Positions 5,361 through 44,148 of a DNA stretch of 62,371 nt are shown here, piece by piece. Position 1 is the stretch's first letter; each line of letters begins with the position of its first letter. The position numbers were made by a program, and so were the translations under genes. Origin of the DNA: Planctomycetota bacterium (GTDB taxonomy: Bacteria; Planctomycetota; PLA2); the NCBI GenBank assembly GCA_027297745.1, contig JAPUHK010000257.1, positions 1-62,371 on the forward strand, given 5' to 3'. Under the pieces are notes generated by a model. That model saw nothing but the letters and a program-made list of their open reading frames with translations. It made no database searches and was not told the DNA's origin.

Positions 5361-6662
5361 TTAGACCGCGGTCACGACCTCGTTGACCACATCGACCATC
5401 GCCGACGCGATGCGCGCGCATTCGGCGTCCGTCGTGCACGCAGGCGGCATTCCGTAGAGCACGTTGCCGAGCGGCCGCAGCAGGACGTCGTGCGGCAGGC
5501 GGCGGCAGGCTTCACGCAGGCGGGGCCCCCAGTCGGAGAGGTAGCCACCCGATGCGCCGCCCAACTCCACCGCGGCGATGCCACCGATGCGGCGCACGTC
5601 CTGCACGGCGGGTTCCGAGCGCAGCGCGGCCAAGCCGCTCTCGATGCGCTCTCCGATCTGCTCAAAGCGCGCCGGCACGCGCTCCTCCTCCACCATGCGC
5701 AGCGACTCCAGGCCGACGGCGCACCCCATCGCGTGCGCGGTGAACGTGTGTCCGTGAAAGAACGTCCGCATCCGGTCCTCGCTCAGGAAGGCGCTGTAGA
5801 TCTCCTCGGTCGCCAGCGTTGCGGCCAGCGGTAGCATGCCGCCGCTGAGCCCCTTGGAGAGACAGAGAAGATCGGGCGCGATCTCCGCGCGCTCGCAGGC
5901 GAAGAGCGTCCCGGTGCGCCCGAAGCCGGTCATGACCTCGTCCGCGATCAGGAACAGGCCGTCGGCGTCGCACAGACGCCGCGCCTCGCGCACGAAAGAC
6001 GCGGGGACGGGCTTCATGCCGGCCGCGCCCTGCACGCCCGGCTCCAAGATCACCGCCGCCACCTCACCCCTCCGTCTGCGCAACAACTCCTCCAGCCGCC
6101 CGGCGTCCGCCGGCACGCGCTCGGCTTCGAACAGAAACGGCGCCAGGTCCAAAAAGAAGGGATCCGGGTCCCCTACGGACATCGCTCCGAACGTGTCGCC
6201 GTGATAGCCGCCCTCAAGCGCGACGAAACACGTGCGCCGCTTCTCTCCCCGCCGCAGCCAGGTCATGCAGGCGGCCTTGAGCGCGACCTCGACGGCGGTG
6301 CTGCCGTCGTCGCTGTAGAAGACACGGGTCAGGCCCGGCGGCGTGACTTCCACCAGGCGTTCCGCCAGACGCACGGCCGGTTCGTGCGTGCAGCCGGCGA
6401 ACATGACGTGATCGAGCCGGGACGCTTGCTCGGACAGGGCGCGCACCAGGCGCGGGTGCCCATGGCCGTGCAGACAGGCCCACCAGGACGAAATGGCGTC
6501 CAGCAACTTGCGGCCGTCGTGCAGCTCCAACCAGGCGCCCGATGCGCGCGCCACCGGCAACGGCTCCGGATCGATGGCGTGCTGCGTGTACGGGTGCCAG
6601 CAGACGCGGCGGTCGCCGGCCAGCCAGGAGGGCCCATGGGAATCCTGCGACGGTCCGTTCAT
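5361..6662 (-). CDS. bioA: Adenosylmethionine-8-amino-7-oxononanoate aminotransferase
   Basis: From MNGPSQ...: WHPYTQH, SSWWACLHGHGHP, YSDDGSTAVEVALK and LCLSKGLSGGMLPLAAT (PLP Lys) match BioA. ATG at 6662 overlaps the upstream stop (ATGA). Confidence 0.93.
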   Translation of the reverse strand: MNGPSQDSHGPSWLAGDRRVCWHPYTQHAIDPEPLPVARASGAWLELHDGRKLLDAISSWWACLHGHGHPRLVRALSEQASRLDHVMFAGCTHEPAVRLAERLVEVTPPGLTRVFYSDDGSTAVEVALKAACMTWLRRGEKRRTCFVALEGGYHGDTFGAMSVGDPDPFFLDLAPFLFEAERVPADAGRLEELLRRRRGEVAAVILEPGVQGAAGMKPVPASFVREARRLCDADGLFLIADEVMTGFGRTGTLFACERAEIAPDLLCLSKGLSGGMLPLAATLATEEIYSAFLSEDRMRTFFHGHTFTAHAMGCAVGLESLRMVEEERVPARFEQIGERIESGLAALRSEPAVQDVRRIGGIAAVELGGASGGYLSDWGPRLREACRRLPHDVLLRPLGNVLYGMPPACTTDAECARIASAMVDVVNEVVTAV

Positions 6663-8470
6663 CGCAACACCTCGCTCACGTCGTTTTGCCCGAGCCACGT
6701 GTCGAGACTTTGCGTGGACAGCGGCTGGAGGGGCGGCAGGACGAAGATCGGGAGGGCGGGCAGGCGCGCCTGCAGCGTGCGCCGGTTGTCCGCGTGCGGC
6801 TCCCCCACCAGGAACAGTGCGCGCACGGCGAGCCCGCGCCGGAAACACGCTTCCAGGCTGAGCAGCGTGTGGTTGAGCGTTCCGAGCCCGCTACGCGCCA
6901 CCAGCACGAGCGGCGCGCCAAGCTCCGCAAGCCAGTCGGCCTGATCCTCCACGGCGTTCAGCGGCACGCGCAAGCCACCCGCGCACTCGAGCACCCAAGC
7001 GGCGTCCGGCTCCGCGTTCAGACGTTCCGCGCAGGCGCCCTGGATTGCTTCCGCGGTCACTTCCACGCCTTCCGCACCGGCCGCCTGGTCGATAGAGGCC
7101 GGCAACTCCAAGCTCATCGCCGGCGGGAGCACGCTGGACGCGTCGAGTCCGGCTAGTTGCATGACGGCGTGGGAGTCCGACTCGCTTCCGGTCTGCACCG
7201 GCTTGAGGTAGCGCACGGCCTTGCCGGTACGCGCGACGGAGCGCACGAGCAACGCCGACACCACGGTCTTGCCCACGCCGGTATCGGTGCCGGCGACGAC
7301 CAGCGGCCGCGGCGCAGGAGGGGCCACGGGCGCGGCCGGGTAGGCGTGCGCGGCTTCGGCGACGACGCGCGCCAGACGCAAGATCTGATCCGGCGTGTGG
7401 TCGGCGTGGCAGACGATGCGCAGGCGGCTGGTGCCGGCGGGCACCGAGGGCGGGCGCACGGCCCTCACGTCGAAGCCGGCCTCCTGCGCGGCCGCGGCAA
7501 CGCGCAGCGCCCGCTCCGGGTCCCCGAGCACTACGGGCACGATCGGACTGTGGCCGCCCGCCTCCACACCGGCCTCGCGCAGCGCCGCGCGCAACCGCCC
7601 GGCGGCGGCGTGGGCCTGCTCCCTGCGCTCGGGCTCGGCACGCACGATCTCGATGGCGCGCTCGAGCGCGGCGGCGGTGGAGGGCGGCGGCGCCGTGGTG
7701 AACACGAACGAGCGCCCCCACTGCAGCAGCGCCTCGATCACAGTGGCGCGCCCGGCGACGAAGGCTCCGCAGACGCCCAACGCCTTGCCCCCCGTCACCA
7801 TGCGCCCGAGGATGCGCGTCTCGGGATCCTCGCGCACGCCGAGCCCGGCGCCGCCCGGTCCGTACAAGCCGGCCGCGTGCGCCTCGTCCACCAGCAGCCA
7901 TGCGTCGTGCTCGCGCGCGAGACGCTCGAAGTCCTCCAGCGGAGCAAGGTCCCCCGTCATGGAGTAGACCGACTCGACGGCGATCAGCCGGCGCCGCGCC
8001 CCGCGCGACGCGGCCAGGCAGCGCTCGAGGTCTGTGGCGTCGTTGTGCTCGAAGACCGACACGCGGGCACGCGCCAGGCGCGACGCATCGATCAACGACG
8101 CGTGGTTGAGACGGTCGCTGAGGATCACGTCTGTGGGACCTGCAAGCACGGTCAGCAGAGCGAGGTTGGCCTGGTAGCCGCTCGGAAACAAGAGCGCGCG
8201 CTCTGCACGCAGCCATTCGGCCGCCAGCCGCTCCACGCGCTCATGCGGCGGTAGATGGCCGCGCAGCAACCGCGCCGCCCCGGCGCCGGTGCCCCACTCC
8301 TCCAACGCGGCGCGCGCGGCAGCGATCAGGCGCGGGTCGCGCGCGAGCGCCAGGTAGTCGTTGCTGCAGAAGTCGAGCCCGGCCGGGAGCTGCAGGCGCC
8401 GGCGCAGGCCGCGCTCCTCCCAGGCGCGCAGTCTCTCCTCCAGCGGGTCTTCAATCGGCGCGCGGCTCAT
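6659..8470 (-). CDS. bioFD: Fused 8-amino-7-oxononanoate synthase / dethiobiotin synthetase (BioF-BioD)
   Basis: The N-terminal ~385 aa are BioF-like ([34 protein letters not shown]). An Ala/Pro linker ([14 protein letters not shown]) follows. The C-terminal ~215 aa are BioD-like ([12 protein letters not shown]-loop, ECAGGLRVP). It is one uninterrupted frame, and ATG at 8470 overlaps the bioB stop. Confidence 0.9.
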
Positions 8471-9444
8471 CGCCCGGGCGAACGCTCCGAGCGGCTCGGC
8501 CGCAAACCGATCTTGCGCAGCATTGCAGCATCGCGGTCCGGACCCGGGTTGGGCGTCGTGAGCAACTTGTCCCCGAGGAAAATCGAGTTTGCGCCGGCCA
8601 GGAAGCAGAGCGTCTGCCCCTCCTCCGTCATCGCCGTGCGACCCGCGCTCAAGCGCACCTTCGCCGCCGGCATGAGCAGCCGCGCCACGGCCACCACGCG
8701 CACCATCTCGTCCCACGGCAGCGGCTCCAGCTCTCCCAGCGGCGTTCCCGGCACGGCTACCAGCGCGTTGATCGGGACGCTTTCCGGTTGCGGGTCCTGC
8801 CGTGCCAGCTCGTGCAAGAGCCCGATGCGGTCCTCTTCGCTCTCCCCCATGCCGAGGATGCCGCCGCAGCAAACCCGGATACCGGCGTCGCGCACCACCC
8901 GCAGCGTACGCAAGCGATCCTCATAGGTGCGGGTCGTGATGATGCGGTCGTAGAACTCCGGCGAGCTGTCCAGGTTGTGGTTGTAGAAGTCGAGGCCCGC
9001 CTCGCGCAGCCGGCGGGCGTGCCGCGGCTCGAGCATGCCTAGCGTGACGCAGGTCTCCAGGCCGAGCCCTTTCACCTCGCGCACCATCTCCAGCACGCGC
9101 TCGAAGTCCGGCCCGTCGCGCACTTCGCGCCAGGCGGCACCCATGCAAAAGCGATCCGCTCCGTTCGCACGCGCGTTGTGCGCCGCTGCGCGCACGTCGT
9201 CGAGCGCCATCAGGGGCTCCGTCTGCAGGCCGGTGTCGTAGCGCGCGGACTGCGGGCAATAGGCGCAGTCTTCGGGGCAGGCGCCGGTCTTCACGCTCAG
9301 GAGCGAAGAGCACTGGATCTCGGCCGGGTCGTGGTGCCGCCGGTGGACCGCCGCCGCCTCGAGCACGAGGTCGAGCAGGGGACGTCGAAACACCGCGGCG
9401 ACCTCTTCACGAGAGAGGGGGCGCGCTTCGGTGTGCGGGGTCAT
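8467..9444 (-). CDS. bioB: Biotin synthase (radical SAM)
   Basis: The [11 protein letters not shown] radical-SAM cluster motif plus [12 protein letters not shown] and GMGES are typical of BioB. The likely start is MTPHTEA at 9444. Confidence 0.95.
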
Positions 9445-9549
9445 CGGGGGGCCTACATGCCGGACCGGCTGAGCGTAGGAGGGGCGCTGAAAAAGCACAA
9501 GAGCCGTTCGCGGAGGGAACACGGCGCGCACCGCATTCGTTCAAGGCGC

Positions 9550-10461: not shown

Positions 10462-10802
10462 AGGGTCTGTCTGAGAACTCATCTGGATTCGGCCGGCTGC
10501 GGCGTCGCTTGGCTGTGTCGCGCCCGCACAGGCGGTGTTTCGAAGACCACCTGGCGCCCTGCACCAAAGCCGTGATGCTCGGACGCTCCTCTCATGGAGT
10601 CGCCTGCGTCGTCGCTTGCTCGCCTGACGACTCCGGTGCCTGGGCTTGGTCCTGACGGTGGCCCTCGAAACACAGCCTGAGCGCAACTCTCCGTTGATAC
10701 GGCGTCGGGGACGCGACGCCGCCAGGCTTGTCCTCGCGCCCGTCCTCGGTCCTGACGATGAGCTGTCACACAGACCCTGGACCACGTCCAATCCGCCCTA
10801 CA

Positions 10803-11639
10803 ATGCGCGCCATGAGATTCCTGTTGTGCACGCTGCTGCTGACCGCTCCCGCGCTCTCGGCCGACAAGAAGGAATGGGCCAAGGGCATCCCCTACACGAC
10901 GGACTGGAAGGCCGCCATCAAGGAGGCCAAGAACACGGGGAAGATGATCCTCATCTACAACGGATGGCAACGGGAACGGATATGAGCTCCCTGTGATGCG
11001 TTGAAGTCCGCCGTGCGCGGGCTCACCTCCGGGAAGAAGGGTTACGAGAAGTGGCCCAAGCTGTTCCAGAAGAACTTCATCTTCCTCAGCGAGTTCACTA
11101 CCTCGGTGGCGGAGGAGCACGAGCCGCGCGGGCCTGAGGGCCCCTATCGCTTCAAGGACCGCAGCGTGCCGGTGCTCGTGATCAAGAAGTGGAACGGCGA
11201 CACGATCGTGCAGCAGCTCGGTTGGGGCGGTGCGGAGAACCGACTCGAGCAGATCTTGTCCTCGGCCATCAAGAAGAACGGCCCCGTCGCTCCGCCCAAA
11301 GCGCTGCGGCCGTTGCTCAAGTCCTACAAGAAGGGCGGCGAGCACTTGAAGAAGGGGCGCACCGCTGCGGCCATCCGCGAGTTCCAGGCCGTGCTGAGGG
11401 CGGGTGGCAAGAAGAAGGTCTTCCGTGAAGAGCCCCCGCCCGTAATGAACGACGCGACCGAGCGCCTCGAGGAGCTCGAGCAGCGTTGCCGCGAGGAGAT
11501 GGAAAAGGTGGCTGCGACGGCACAGAAAGATGCCGCCGGGGCACGCAAGGCCTATGGCAAGCTGCTCAGGGACTACGGCGGGATCAAACCGCTCAAGACC
11601 GAGCTGCGGAAGATCATCAAGGAACTCCCAAAGGAATAG
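10803..11639 (+). CDS. Secreted thioredoxin-fold protein with in-frame TGA (candidate Sec at residue 61, U-A-P-C motif) and a helical Lys-rich C-terminal region
   Basis: Track ORFs 10728..10985 and 11001..11639 share one frame and are separated only by TGA at 10983-10985. The fused sequence reads ...KMILIYNGWQRERI-U-APCDALK.... A signal peptide MRFLLCTLLLTAPALSA is present. SVPVLVIKKWNG fits the cis-Pro/beta3 region of the Trx fold. Confidence 0.6.
10983..11025 (+). promoter_or_regulatory. Candidate bacterial SECIS-like hairpin starting at the UGA
   Basis: UGAGC(10983-87)/GCUCA(11021-25) pair, followed by a bulged U and CC/GG. The inner helix could be GCGU/GCGC or alternatively CCGC(11008-11)/GCGG(11017-20) with a CGUGC loop. 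Folded by eye only. Confidence 0.3.
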
Positions 11640-11642
11640 CTG

Positions 11643-11690
11643 TCAGCTATCAGCCGTCACAAGGGGCTGATAGCTGATGGCTTCTTATAA
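11643..11690 (+). terminator. Intrinsic terminator-like hairpin
   Basis: Perfect 12-bp stem CAGCTATCAGCC (11644-55) / GGCTGATAGCTG (11665-76) with a 9-nt loop, followed by ATGGCTTCTTATAAA. Confidence 0.5.
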
Positions 11691-11699
11691 ACTCGCCGC

Positions 11700-13217
11700 G
11701 TGAGCGCTAAGCGCAGCACCGCCGAGAGCTACCACGAGCTGACCAACTACACGCACGAGACGTTGCGCCGTGTCAGCGCCCCCGACCCGGGGCAACAACC
11801 CGCGCCGTTCAAGGAGGTCGTCAGTAGCCAGCGCGTTCCGCTGCGCGCCTACCTCCCCTTCGGGAAGGACCCGTTCACGGGCGAGCGGCTGGACCCCGCG
11901 CCGCCCAGCGACGAAGGCGATCTGGGCCTGGCGGTCTTGTCGCGCCTCCTGTTTCACACCTACGGCATCACGGGAGTCGTGCAGTTCGAGGGAGGCGGTG
12001 GACATATGTTGCGCGCGGCGCCCTCCGCAGGCGCGCTCTACCCGTCCGAGCTGTACCTGGTTGCGCCGCCCTTGCCGGAGCTGGAGGCGGGCATCTACCA
12101 CTATCAGGTGGCGCAGCACGAGCTCGTGCGTCTGTGGGAAGGAGACCACACGGACGCCGTGCAGCGCGCGCTGGGCGGCCAGGCCTTTCCCGACACGCGC
12201 GCGTTCCTGCTCTTGAGCGGCGTCTTCTGGCGCAGCGCGTGGCGCTACGGGGAACGTGGCTACCGCCGCGTGCTGCTCGACGCCGGACACGTGCTCGGCA
12301 ATCTGGCCGCCTACGCACCGGCCGAGGGCTGGACGGCGGTGCCCGCCGCGGGATTCAACGACGCCGCGCTGAACGGCCTGCTCTTCTTGGACGACGCGCA
12401 GGAGGCGGTGCTCCTGTGCATGCCCATCCTGCGCGAGGAGTCCGTGCCGCGCCCTTCGCGCCTGCTGCGCTCGTCCGTGACGTTGGGCAAGGCGGACGGC
12501 TCGCCCAACGTATCCGGGCCGGAAGCGCTCGCCGCGAGCGCCACCGTCGCCCTGCACCGCGCCTCGTGCTGCGAGGCGGACGCCGCGTTGGTCGAGGCCG
12601 GGGTCGGGGCCGCCCCCTCCGATCGCGCGCTGCCGCTCACGCCGCCCACACGCCGCCCGCCGGTGCACGCGGGACGGGCCATCCTGCGCCGGCGGTCCGC
12701 GCGCAGCTACTCGGGAGAAGCCATCGGGCTTCAGCCCCTCGCCCTATGCCTCGACTCGACCTTTTGCCGCAGCGCTCCGGACGCGGCCGAGTGCTGGTTC
12801 CCGGTCCGGCGCTCCGGTCTGCTGGACTCCAGGCTCGTGGCGCTGCGCGTCGAGGGTCTCGCGCCCGGCATCTATGGCATCGAGGGTGCCGGCGAGGCGC
12901 TCCTGCCTTTGAGCCTGGGCGATTTCGGCGAGCGTTTCTTCGAGGCCACGCTGGCGCAGGAGATCGCGCGCGACTGTGCCGCGGCCGTGGCCTTCACCGC
13001 GCCGCTCCATGCCGCGGTCGAACGCTGGGGCGAACGCGCCTACCGCTACCTGCACCTCGAAGCGGGCCATCTGGGCGAGCGCCTGCAGATCGCCGCCACG
13101 AGCGCGCGCTTGAGCTGCTGCGGGATCGCAGGCTTCCTGGACGAGGAGGCGGCCAGCCTGCTCGCGCTCGAGCCCGACGAGATCACGCTCTACTTCGTGA
13201 CGCTCGGGAAGGAATAG
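11700..13217 (+). CDS. SagB/ThcOx-type dehydrogenase, tandem nitroreductase-like domains
   Basis: GTG start. ESYHELTNYTHET resembles the SagB-type N-terminus, with RAAPSAGALYPSELY and YRRVLLDAGH. The second half restarts with ILRRRSARSYSG and ends HLEAGHLGERL ... GIAGF. Confidence 0.8.
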   Translation: MSAKRSTAESYHELTNYTHETLRRVSAPDPGQQPAPFKEVVSSQRVPLRAYLPFGKDPFTGERLDPAPPSDEGDLGLAVLSRLLFHTYGITGVVQFEGGGGHMLRAAPSAGALYPSELYLVAPPLPELEAGIYHYQVAQHELVRLWEGDHTDAVQRALGGQAFPDTRAFLLLSGVFWRSAWRYGERGYRRVLLDAGHVLGNLAAYAPAEGWTAVPAAGFNDAALNGLLFLDDAQEAVLLCMPILREESVPRPSRLLRSSVTLGKADGSPNVSGPEALAASATVALHRASCCEADAALVEAGVGAAPSDRALPLTPPTRRPPVHAGRAILRRRSARSYSGEAIGLQPLALCLDSTFCRSAPDAAECWFPVRRSGLLDSRLVALRVEGLAPGIYGIEGAGEALLPLSLGDFGERFFEATLAQEIARDCAAAVAFTAPLHAAVERWGERAYRYLHLEAGHLGERLQIAATSARLSCCGIAGFLDEEAASLLALEPDEITLYFVTLGKE

Positions 13218-43767: not shown

Positions 43768-44148
43768 CGCTTCGTTGGTGCACCCCGCCGGGCGGTTCGT
43801 CTGAGAAGGTGCCGGTCCCCGAACGCAAGCGCGCCCGGAGGGCCGACCGCCATCCGGGCGCGAGGTTTTTCGCGATCCGGACTCGTGTGGCAGCTGGCTG
43901 CCCTGTCGCGCCGCAGCGCGAGTTAGGCCCTTAAGCTTTGCGCCACCAGCTTTCGCTGGCTTTGCCCTTTCAGCCGAGTTCCGAACTGACTAGGTGCCGA
44001 AAAAGAACAACATCCCGTGTGGGACGCGAGAAGACTAGCCCTGGAATGTCGTCGGGCAAGCACAACCTCGTTTTTTTTCGACGTTTCCATAAGAAGTTTT
44101 TCAACAACGACTTACAACCGAGATCTAGCTTGAGGTGGGGCGCATGTC

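Follow-up and report, generated by a model that had tools for sequence, protein, structure and literature searches.

A conserved in-frame TGA in a thioredoxin-fold gene of Planctomycetota is very probably decoded as selenocysteine

Introduction

Bacterial selenoproteins are sorted into 111 families in BSepDB (PMC13326102). Those with a thioredoxin fold and a UxxC motif, in which selenocysteine (Sec, U) takes the place of a cysteine, include, as predicted members, the thiol:disulfide interchange protein (PF13098) and the TlpA/thiol-disulfide isomerase-like proteins (cd02966), together with DsbA-like and DsbG-like forms and a Sec-thioredoxin (PF00085), all listed in Table 1 of the 2026 catalogue PMC13188914. 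Here we report on a gene of this kind carried by contig JAPUHK010000257.1 of a Planctomycetota bacterium (assembly GCA_027297745.1), the whole stretch of 62,371 nucleotides that was analysed being called the window hereafter. The gene lies at 10803-11639 on the forward strand and is interrupted by an in-frame TGA at 10983-10985. An earlier reading of the window alone (the original prediction) had proposed that this codon is recoded, and we consider it very probable that the region is one genuine selenoprotein gene in which the TGA is decoded as Sec.

The product shares several traits with the catalogued UxxC selenoproteins, namely a thioredoxin fold, Sec at the N-terminal Cys of CxxC, homologs of the Cys form, a hairpin of the bacterial selenocysteine insertion sequence (bSECIS) type just downstream within the coding sequence and an extracytoplasmic location implied by a signal peptide. 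By contrast, the invariant motifs YNGW and PRGPxGP and an extra helical C-terminal domain are its own, and the family is restricted to Planctomycetota-like metagenome-assembled genomes (MAGs) and one member of the Akkermansiaceae. When 16 members were scanned with Cys written for Sec, no Pfam model scored above threshold and no relevant NCBIfam model was found at E <= 1, the selenoprotein-specific NF04xxxx models included; no homolog carries a precomputed Pfam domain, and the public homologs are unnamed or called 'hypothetical'. On sequence grounds this is a putative new family inside the well-known UxxC thioredoxin-fold kind, set apart with respect to Pfam and NCBIfam models rather than to the entries of BSepDB. 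Its membership of the bacterial selenoproteins in general is supported by every criterion that can be tested. Regarding the RNA, the hairpin resembles the fdhF/fdnG-type SECIS elements of E. coli and the bSECISearch consensus in being a stem-loop that lies within the coding sequence shortly 3' of the UGA, with a small loop in which G and then U come first, whereas no sequence similarity to the fdhF/fdnG elements was seen and none is expected.

Results

The gene combines a conserved in-frame TGA, an alternation of Sec and Cys among its homologs, translation across the TGA, a covarying SECIS-type hairpin and a thioredoxin fold in which the Sec column lies at the active site. By direct translation, the open reading frames (ORFs) 10728..10985 and 11001..11639 have a common frame on the forward strand, and the TGA at 10983-10985 is all that separates them. 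Translation from ATG 10803 yields 278 residues with Sec61 included, the stop falling at codon 61 and a Cys at position 64, which gives the motif U61-A-P-C64; this agrees exactly with the fusion that had been described originally. The sequence around the stop codon reads ...GKMILIYNGWQRERI-[TGA]-APCDALKSAVRGL..., and the N-terminus that had been likened to a signal peptide, MRFLLCTLLLTAPALSA, and the later segment SVPVLVIKKWNG are both present, the latter followed by a Lys-rich C-terminal part. An alternative start, ATG 10812, would give a product beginning MRFLL.... Judged from the sequence, the signal peptide is probably cleaved after APA or ALSA; in all complete orthologs the N-terminus is basic and is followed by a hydrophobic core and an AxA-like site, ahead of a conserved (E/Q)W motif. 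The parts of the gene are as follows.

10803..11639 (+): full selenoprotein coding sequence, 278 aa, ending with TAG 11637-11639; from translation and the full-length alignment A3 with 15 orthologs
10812..10862 (+): predicted signal peptide of the general secretory (Sec) type, MRFLLCTLLLTAPALSA; read by eye from the sequence
10983..10985 (+): in-frame UGA, Sec61, with which the redox motif U-A-P-C begins; the Sec-type loci have TGA in 20/20 cases, the Cys forms TGC or TGT
10992..10994 (+): Cys64 (TGT), resolving residue of UxxC; invariant in alignment A3, with TGT and TGC alternating among orthologs
11003..11024 (+): bacterial SECIS-type hairpin, GA-A-GUCCGC [CGUGC] GCGGGC-UC; from folding and comparative evidence
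11124..11144 (+): family-specific motif P-R-G-P-E-G-P, located after beta2/alpha2 and before the cis-Pro loop; its columns vary hardly or not at all in alignments A1, A3 and A4
11163..11174 (+): S-V-P-V, predicted cis-Pro loop directly ahead of beta3; S118, V119, P120 and V121 invariant in A3
11295..11636 (+): Lys-rich, all-helical C-terminal domain of about 115 aa; corresponds to helices 187-293 of the P0036 model, with a predicted local distance difference test score (pLDDT) above 90

The fused sequence, with Cys replacing the stop, was used as query against 5.8 billion proteins. Sixty-three matches were obtained, reaching down to about 40% identity, and the named ones all come from Planctomycetota MAGs; 62 of them are proteins of ~200-215 aa that span only the downstream 75% of the query. 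The single full-length match, P0036, reads IYNGWPEKGT-C-KPC-DALK, with a Cys exactly where the window has its TGA. We then compared the DNA of 21 homologous loci taken from independent assemblies (GTDB genomes, JGI and ENA metagenomes and individual look-ups). The homologous codon is TGA in 20 of the 21, at 40-100% protein identity, and never TAA or TAG, the remaining locus, L017, being that of P0036 with TGC. Chance falls far short of explaining such a recurrence. The TGA loci derive from Planctomycetota MAGs, metagenomes and one Akkermansiaceae, and include L008, an independent JGI contig that is 100% identical to the window region. Each complete locus carries the conserved block (E/Q)WxxG(V/I)P(Y/F)xT(D/N)(W/F)xxAI...GKxLxIYNGW after an N-terminus that resembles a signal peptide. 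In alignment A3 (and in its numbering), W22 and Y49-N50-G51-W52 are invariant before the TGA, as are C61, K65, PRGPxGP and SVPV after it, so that invariant residues are found on both sides of the stop codon.

When 1.84 billion cluster representatives were searched exhaustively with HMMER, using a profile that covers both halves, only 68 members were retrieved. About 20 of these are orphaned N-terminal halves, 57-87 aa long, whose match stops at profile position 59-62 and thus falls just short of the Sec column; another 20 or so correspond to the C-terminal half, and about 12 span the full length. In the alignment of the full-length members, seven representatives have a Cys at the Sec column, their motifs being the following.

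P0036: CKPC (codon TGC)
P0078: CAPC
P0085: CSSC (codon TGT)
P0088 and P0089: CLAC (codon TGC in P0088)
P0101: CSAC
P0083: CHVS

The column that corresponds to position 61 is thus occupied by Sec in 20 loci and by Cys in seven representatives, as the recoding interpretation had anticipated, and such Sec/Cys alternation among homologs is the pattern used in the field for calling new selenoproteins (PMC12013277). A differing architecture is that of L007, from an Akkermansiaceae MAG (Verrucomicrobiota; JABDMC010000174.1, 7901 onward), which has U-R-G-C and a wholly different, non-helical C-terminal region; its sequence points to a selenoprotein thioredoxin module that is joined to differing C-terminal domains. 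It should also be noted that six divergent full-length members (alignment A6: P0084, P0095, P0099, P0122, P0137 and P0142) have lost one or both redox residues (reading for example D-P-V-C, or lacking Cys altogether) and still keep the fold-defining motifs and the helical domain, which suggests, from the sequences, redox-inactive paralogs with a structural or binding role.

Downstream of the TGA, where the original prediction had advised looking for a SECIS element, a conserved and covarying hairpin was found. Between 21 and 42 nt past the U of the UGA, every close ortholog can fold (G/C)A-A-G-xxx-GC [CGUGC] GC-yyy-C-U(C/G), in which the codons xxx and yyy, at positions +8 and +12, form antiparallel pairs with each other. 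The xxx/yyy pairs observed include UCC/GGG, GCC/GGC, GCC/GGU, GGC/GCC, GGC/GUC, GCU/AGC, GCU/AGU, AAC/GUU and GAC/GUU. Across the alignment of 19 sequences, 96.7% of cells are paired and four of the eight pairs show double-sided compensatory changes; none of 500 column shuffles attained the covariation score, pairing fell to 34-55% in controls whose 3' partners were slid by 1-3 nt, and RNAalifold recovered the same helix independently. In the window, the stem has 6+2 bp, the apical loop CGUGC occupies 11012-11016 at a spacing of 26 nt after the UGA, with G11013 and U11014 invariant, and the folding energy is -11.5 kcal/mol. Synonymous sites within the hairpin are nearly frozen (AAG in 19/19, GCC in 17/19, GTG in 18/19 and CGC in 17/19), and the third, synonymous position of codon +8 changes in concert with the first of codon +12, GCU being seen only with AGY. 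As the A-V-R residues encoded here are not conserved in the protein of Cys-form homologs, these observations reveal a constraint on the RNA and not on the protein alone.

The published bSECIS consensus calls for a loop of 3-9 nt with G (usually G[G/U]) among its first positions, a stem of 4 bp or more, a spacing of 16-37 nt and a minimum free energy (MFE) of -7.5 kcal/mol or lower (PMC13188914). The local folds of all 19 close orthologs and of L007 agree with it on all four counts, with a spacing of 26-27 nt and an MFE of -7.8 to -16.7 kcal/mol among the orthologs; L007 has a hairpin of its own, with loop GUGA and a spacing of 31 nt. A uniform automatic bSECIS test was passed by 14 of the 20 Sec loci and by none of the three Cys loci (L017, L024 and L025), compared with about 9% of random window positions.

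Regarding the fold, an AlphaFold2 model was made of the Cys homolog P0036, which is 38% identical to the window protein, from an alignment of 40 rows. With a mean pLDDT of 88 and a predicted template modelling (pTM) score of 0.72, it has the thioredoxin topology (beta-alpha-beta-alpha-beta-beta-alpha). A disordered signal and linker are followed by helix 53-63, strand 66-72 (the IYNGW strand), a loop and helix 80-94 (helix 1), of which Cys79, at the Sec column, is the N-cap. Then come helix 100-109, strand 110-116, the PRGPEGP region, strands 142-146 and 152-157 and helix 163-181, with S-V-P-V (S139-V142) running into strand 142-146, and a separate helix bundle at 187-293. The top 50 Foldseek matches of this model in the PDB are nearly all thioredoxin-fold proteins, headed by AGR3/AGR2 (E about 1e-4, target TM score 0.65), thioredoxins (TM up to 0.69), a DsbD-C-like exported domain and DsbH. 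This confident model and its matches fit the fold that had been proposed from the sequence; helix 1 begins at the first redox residue, and the S-V-P segment is a predicted cis-Pro loop. PDB searches by protein sequence and by profile gave nothing beyond coiled-coil noise on the C-terminal domain, for which Pfam gives weak signals resembling tetratricopeptide repeats, all below threshold.

The best structural matches are the Thioredoxin_7 (PF13899) proteins AGR2/AGR3/TXNDC12 and DsbD-C-terminal-like domains (PDB 3ph9, 9i3u and 3f9u; Foldseek E 1e-4 to 2e-3, target TM 0.5-0.66), which likewise are secreted or exported domains. They differ from the new family in sequence (11-16% identity) and active site, the AGR proteins being CxxS without Sec, and all of them lack the PRGPEGP loop and the helical domain at the C-terminus. 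In architecture only, the protein also recalls the chaperedoxin YbbN/CnoX, in which an N-terminal thioredoxin fold precedes a helical-repeat domain. The corresponding structures 3qou and 3qdn rank 37-38 in Foldseek with about 280-300 aligned columns, a weak match (TM 0.26-0.28, root-mean-square deviation 13-16 A), and CnoX is cytoplasmic with SxxC, unlike the window protein with its predicted signal peptide and UxxC.

Discussion

The simplest alternative is that of two separate genes, or of one gene killed by a nonsense mutation, which would leave a secreted peptide of ~60 aa and a protein of ~208 aa started at GTG 11010 or TTG 11001. Gene callers propose exactly this split in all TGA-form public homologs (an N-terminal ORF of 57-87 aa and a C-terminal one of ~200-215 aa), and the sole recurrent potential restart, a GTG ten codons past the TGA (11010-11012 in the window), is present in 18 of the 19 close orthologs. 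However, this GTG is GTT in L001 and ATC in L007, and the nine codons between it and the TGA are conserved as protein with synonymous wobble, so that ribosomes which got past the TGA read them in frame. Codons +1 to +4, which precede every potential restart codon, vary by third-position wobble only (Ala as GCT, GCG, GCA or GCC; Pro as CCC, CCG or CCT; Cys as TGT or TGC; Asp as GAT or GAC). Both halves of the gene are under purifying selection, and the scattered stops and frameshifts of a pseudogene are absent except for a frameshift about 30 codons past the TGA in the gene copy of the metagenome contig L015. Moreover, a signal peptide is missing from the downstream half, the TGA falls between beta1 and helix 1 of what is one compact thioredoxin domain, full-length Cys forms exist, and 20 lineages that share 40-50% identity would not all have fixed a nonsense mutation as TGA. 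Two genes or a dead gene are thus highly improbable. The whole family has been mis-annotated as two ORFs because the callers take as start of the downstream "gene" the in-frame GUG of the SECIS apical loop, whence their products begin MRGL.... A sequencing or assembly error would need a one-base change only, the true codon being TGC or TGT and Cys being thereby restored, but the same TGA occurs in the independent and identical L008 as well as in 19 other assemblies, which come from different projects and were made on different platforms. These 20 independent, divergent assemblies therefore exclude an assembly error as well as a lineage-specific nonsense mutation, and the residual probability of an error is negligible. 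The same can be said of a genome-wide reassignment of TGA, as in genetic codes 4 or 25, by which the gene would be an ordinary ORF. Nothing but the in-frame TGA itself speaks for it, and it is refuted by the use of TGA as an ordinary stop, both in the window, where it terminates 17 of 34 long ORFs, and at the gene's own end, where it is the terminal stop, at the aligned C-terminus, in 8 of the 20 loci. BioB, MgtE and the nitroreductase encoded nearby have normal lengths and Pfam coverage, and the window has a GC content of 69%, unlike the known TGA-recoding lineages.

The alternative closest to Sec decoding is a read-through of the UGA by a near-cognate or suppressor tRNA that inserts Trp, Cys, Arg or Gly, the hairpin being then a generic stimulator rather than a SelB-binding SECIS. 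It would accord with the fact that the Sec machinery was not seen in any DNA examined from carriers (the window and related loci) and with the looseness of the hairpin criteria. Against it, the codon replaces the nucleophilic Cys of CxxC and the redox-competent homologs have only Cys at that place, which is the signature of Sec; the invariant G-U of the loop has the same position and spacing as in known bSECIS elements; and the Cys forms are devoid of the hairpin. Furthermore, complete sets of Sec-insertion genes have been reported for some Planctomycetes (PMC4807772), so that the Sec trait exists in the phylum. We consider read-through without Sec improbable. Decoding of the TGA as Sec, as originally proposed, is on the other hand supported by the homologous column, the independent assemblies, the absence of pseudogene decay, the hairpin and the fold.

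Several observations weigh against this conclusion. Six of the 20 Sec loci fail the strict automatic SECIS test, by one stem mismatch, a bulge or a competing fold. In the window itself, the 68-nt fold after the UGA is no more stable than shuffled sequences (z = +0.58), and with 69% GC about 9% of random positions satisfy the bSECIS consensus, or 4% when a G[G/U] loop is demanded. Because of these two values the single window hairpin is weak evidence, and the weight lies on conservation and covariation. The hairpin overlaps the conserved codons K-x-A-V-R-x-L, its conservation being partly at the protein level, its variable paired residues are also i/i+4 neighbours in a helix, and the hairpin tested was derived from the same sequences, hence favoured over the slid controls; Rfam gave no match at the hairpin site at the gathering threshold. 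As to the protein, Thioredoxin_7 (PF13899) stays below its threshold of 27 bits, with 17.2 bits at best (P0036) and 12.4 for the window protein; it is the only recurrent Pfam family, its sub-threshold matches of 12-17 bits falling on the right residues in 8 of the 16 members. A tblastn search with the E. coli proteins SelA, SelB and SelD found no homolog in the window or in the related loci, which amount to about 300 kb, nor did ARAGORN detect a tRNA-Sec in the window, which has no tRNA gene at all, or in 16 related loci; for the window, both searches agree with what had been noted at the outset. This absence is uninformative, because Sec machinery genes usually lie elsewhere in the genome. 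A motif-guided scan for CxxU or UxxC around in-frame TGA codons gave no second selenoprotein gene on the same DNA. Finally, we infer the dependence on SelB, the export and the redox chemistry together with its direction.

In the mechanism that we propose for this selenoprotein, translation would start at ATG 10803 or 10812 and produce the signal peptide and the first beta strand (LIYNGW). At UGA 10983, SelB-GTP-Sec-tRNA(Sec) docked on the hairpin 11003-11024 would insert Sec rather than let translation terminate, and the ribosome would run on to TAG 11637. The protein would be exported by the general secretory pathway and lose its signal peptide; the mature form of ~260 aa would consist of the thioredoxin-fold domain, with U61-A-P-C64 at the N-terminus of helix 1 beside the S-V-P loop, and of the helical C-terminal domain, which probably binds partners or substrates. 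The selenolate of Sec61 would attack a substrate disulfide (or a sulfenate or peroxide), and Cys64 would resolve the intermediate as a selenenylsulfide that a periplasmic reductant system recycles. The x-Pro-Cys dipeptide of U-A-P-C resembles that of TlpA, ResA and reducing thioredoxin sites. We think it reasonably likely, given the signal peptide, the UxPC motif and the helical domain, that the protein acts as an exported thiol-disulfide oxidoreductase in which Sec61 attacks, Cys64 resolves and the C-terminal domain binds the partner or substrate. A bolder and rather doubtful proposal is that it founds a class of extracytoplasmic selenoenzymes, made of an exported thioredoxin-fold module with an invariant PRGPEGP loop and a helical client-binding domain, and working as a periplasmic chaperedoxin-like reductase or as a scavenger of peroxide or sulfenate for which Sec, and not Cys, would be needed against over-oxidation in an oxidising periplasm. 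The invariant in-frame GUG of the SECIS loop may also serve as a back-up start under selenium limitation, yielding a C-terminal protein without signal.

This work adds a well-supported family to the bacterial selenoproteome, from phyla that are poorly represented in surveys (Planctomycetota and Verrucomicrobiota), and it suggests that the organisms carrying it perform selenium-dependent thiol redox reactions beyond the cytoplasm. Selenoprotein gene finders could be tested cleanly on its mis-annotation as two ORFs, with a start placed inside the SECIS loop, and annotation pipelines could be corrected accordingly; the natural Sec/Cys pair (UAPC versus CAPC or CKPC) can be used to study why Sec is retained.

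Genomic context and other features

The selenoprotein gene appears to be monocistronic. Biotin-synthesis genes flank it upstream on the opposite strand, at ~5361-9531 (-); BioB among them is confirmed by Pfam (radical SAM and BATS domains), and a BioF-BioD fusion and BioA were read by eye only. Directly downstream, at 11700-13217 (+), is a gene for a 505-aa protein with two nitroreductase-family domains (PF00881, E = 5.6e-25), followed by mgtE. No conserved synteny or operon partner was found, the tandem-nitroreductase gene being absent from the other loci and the gene contexts differing at each. Among candidates that were tried and rejected, GSGKTT-U-ARCC was out-of-frame noise over the real bioF/bioD and bioA genes, and candidates for a second selenoprotein in L004, L021 and L018 were likewise noise.

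At the 3' end of the gene, the following structure overlaps the stop codon.

11632..11686 (+): very stable hairpin starting at the stop codon, with an 18-bp core in which 11638-11655 pairs with 11665-11682

Its folding energy is -34.3 kcal/mol (z = -6.2) and none of 200 shuffled sequences was equally stable. It is a probable terminator or 3'-end stabiliser; a simple terminator scan of the forward strand did not call it for want of a clean T-run.

At one of the homologous loci, L015 (JGI Ga0187894_10030608), 14 different tRNA genes are packed in 1.4 kb (808-2211, -) directly upstream of the selenoprotein gene copy. No tRNA-Sec is among them, and L012, the sister contig of L015, has only a tRNA-Asp at the position of this array.

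In the window, the only Rfam match at the gathering threshold is a c-di-GMP-I riboswitch aptamer (RF01051) at 43886-43976 (-), a full-length match with 68.5 bits against a gathering score of 35, which is unrelated to the selenoprotein gene.

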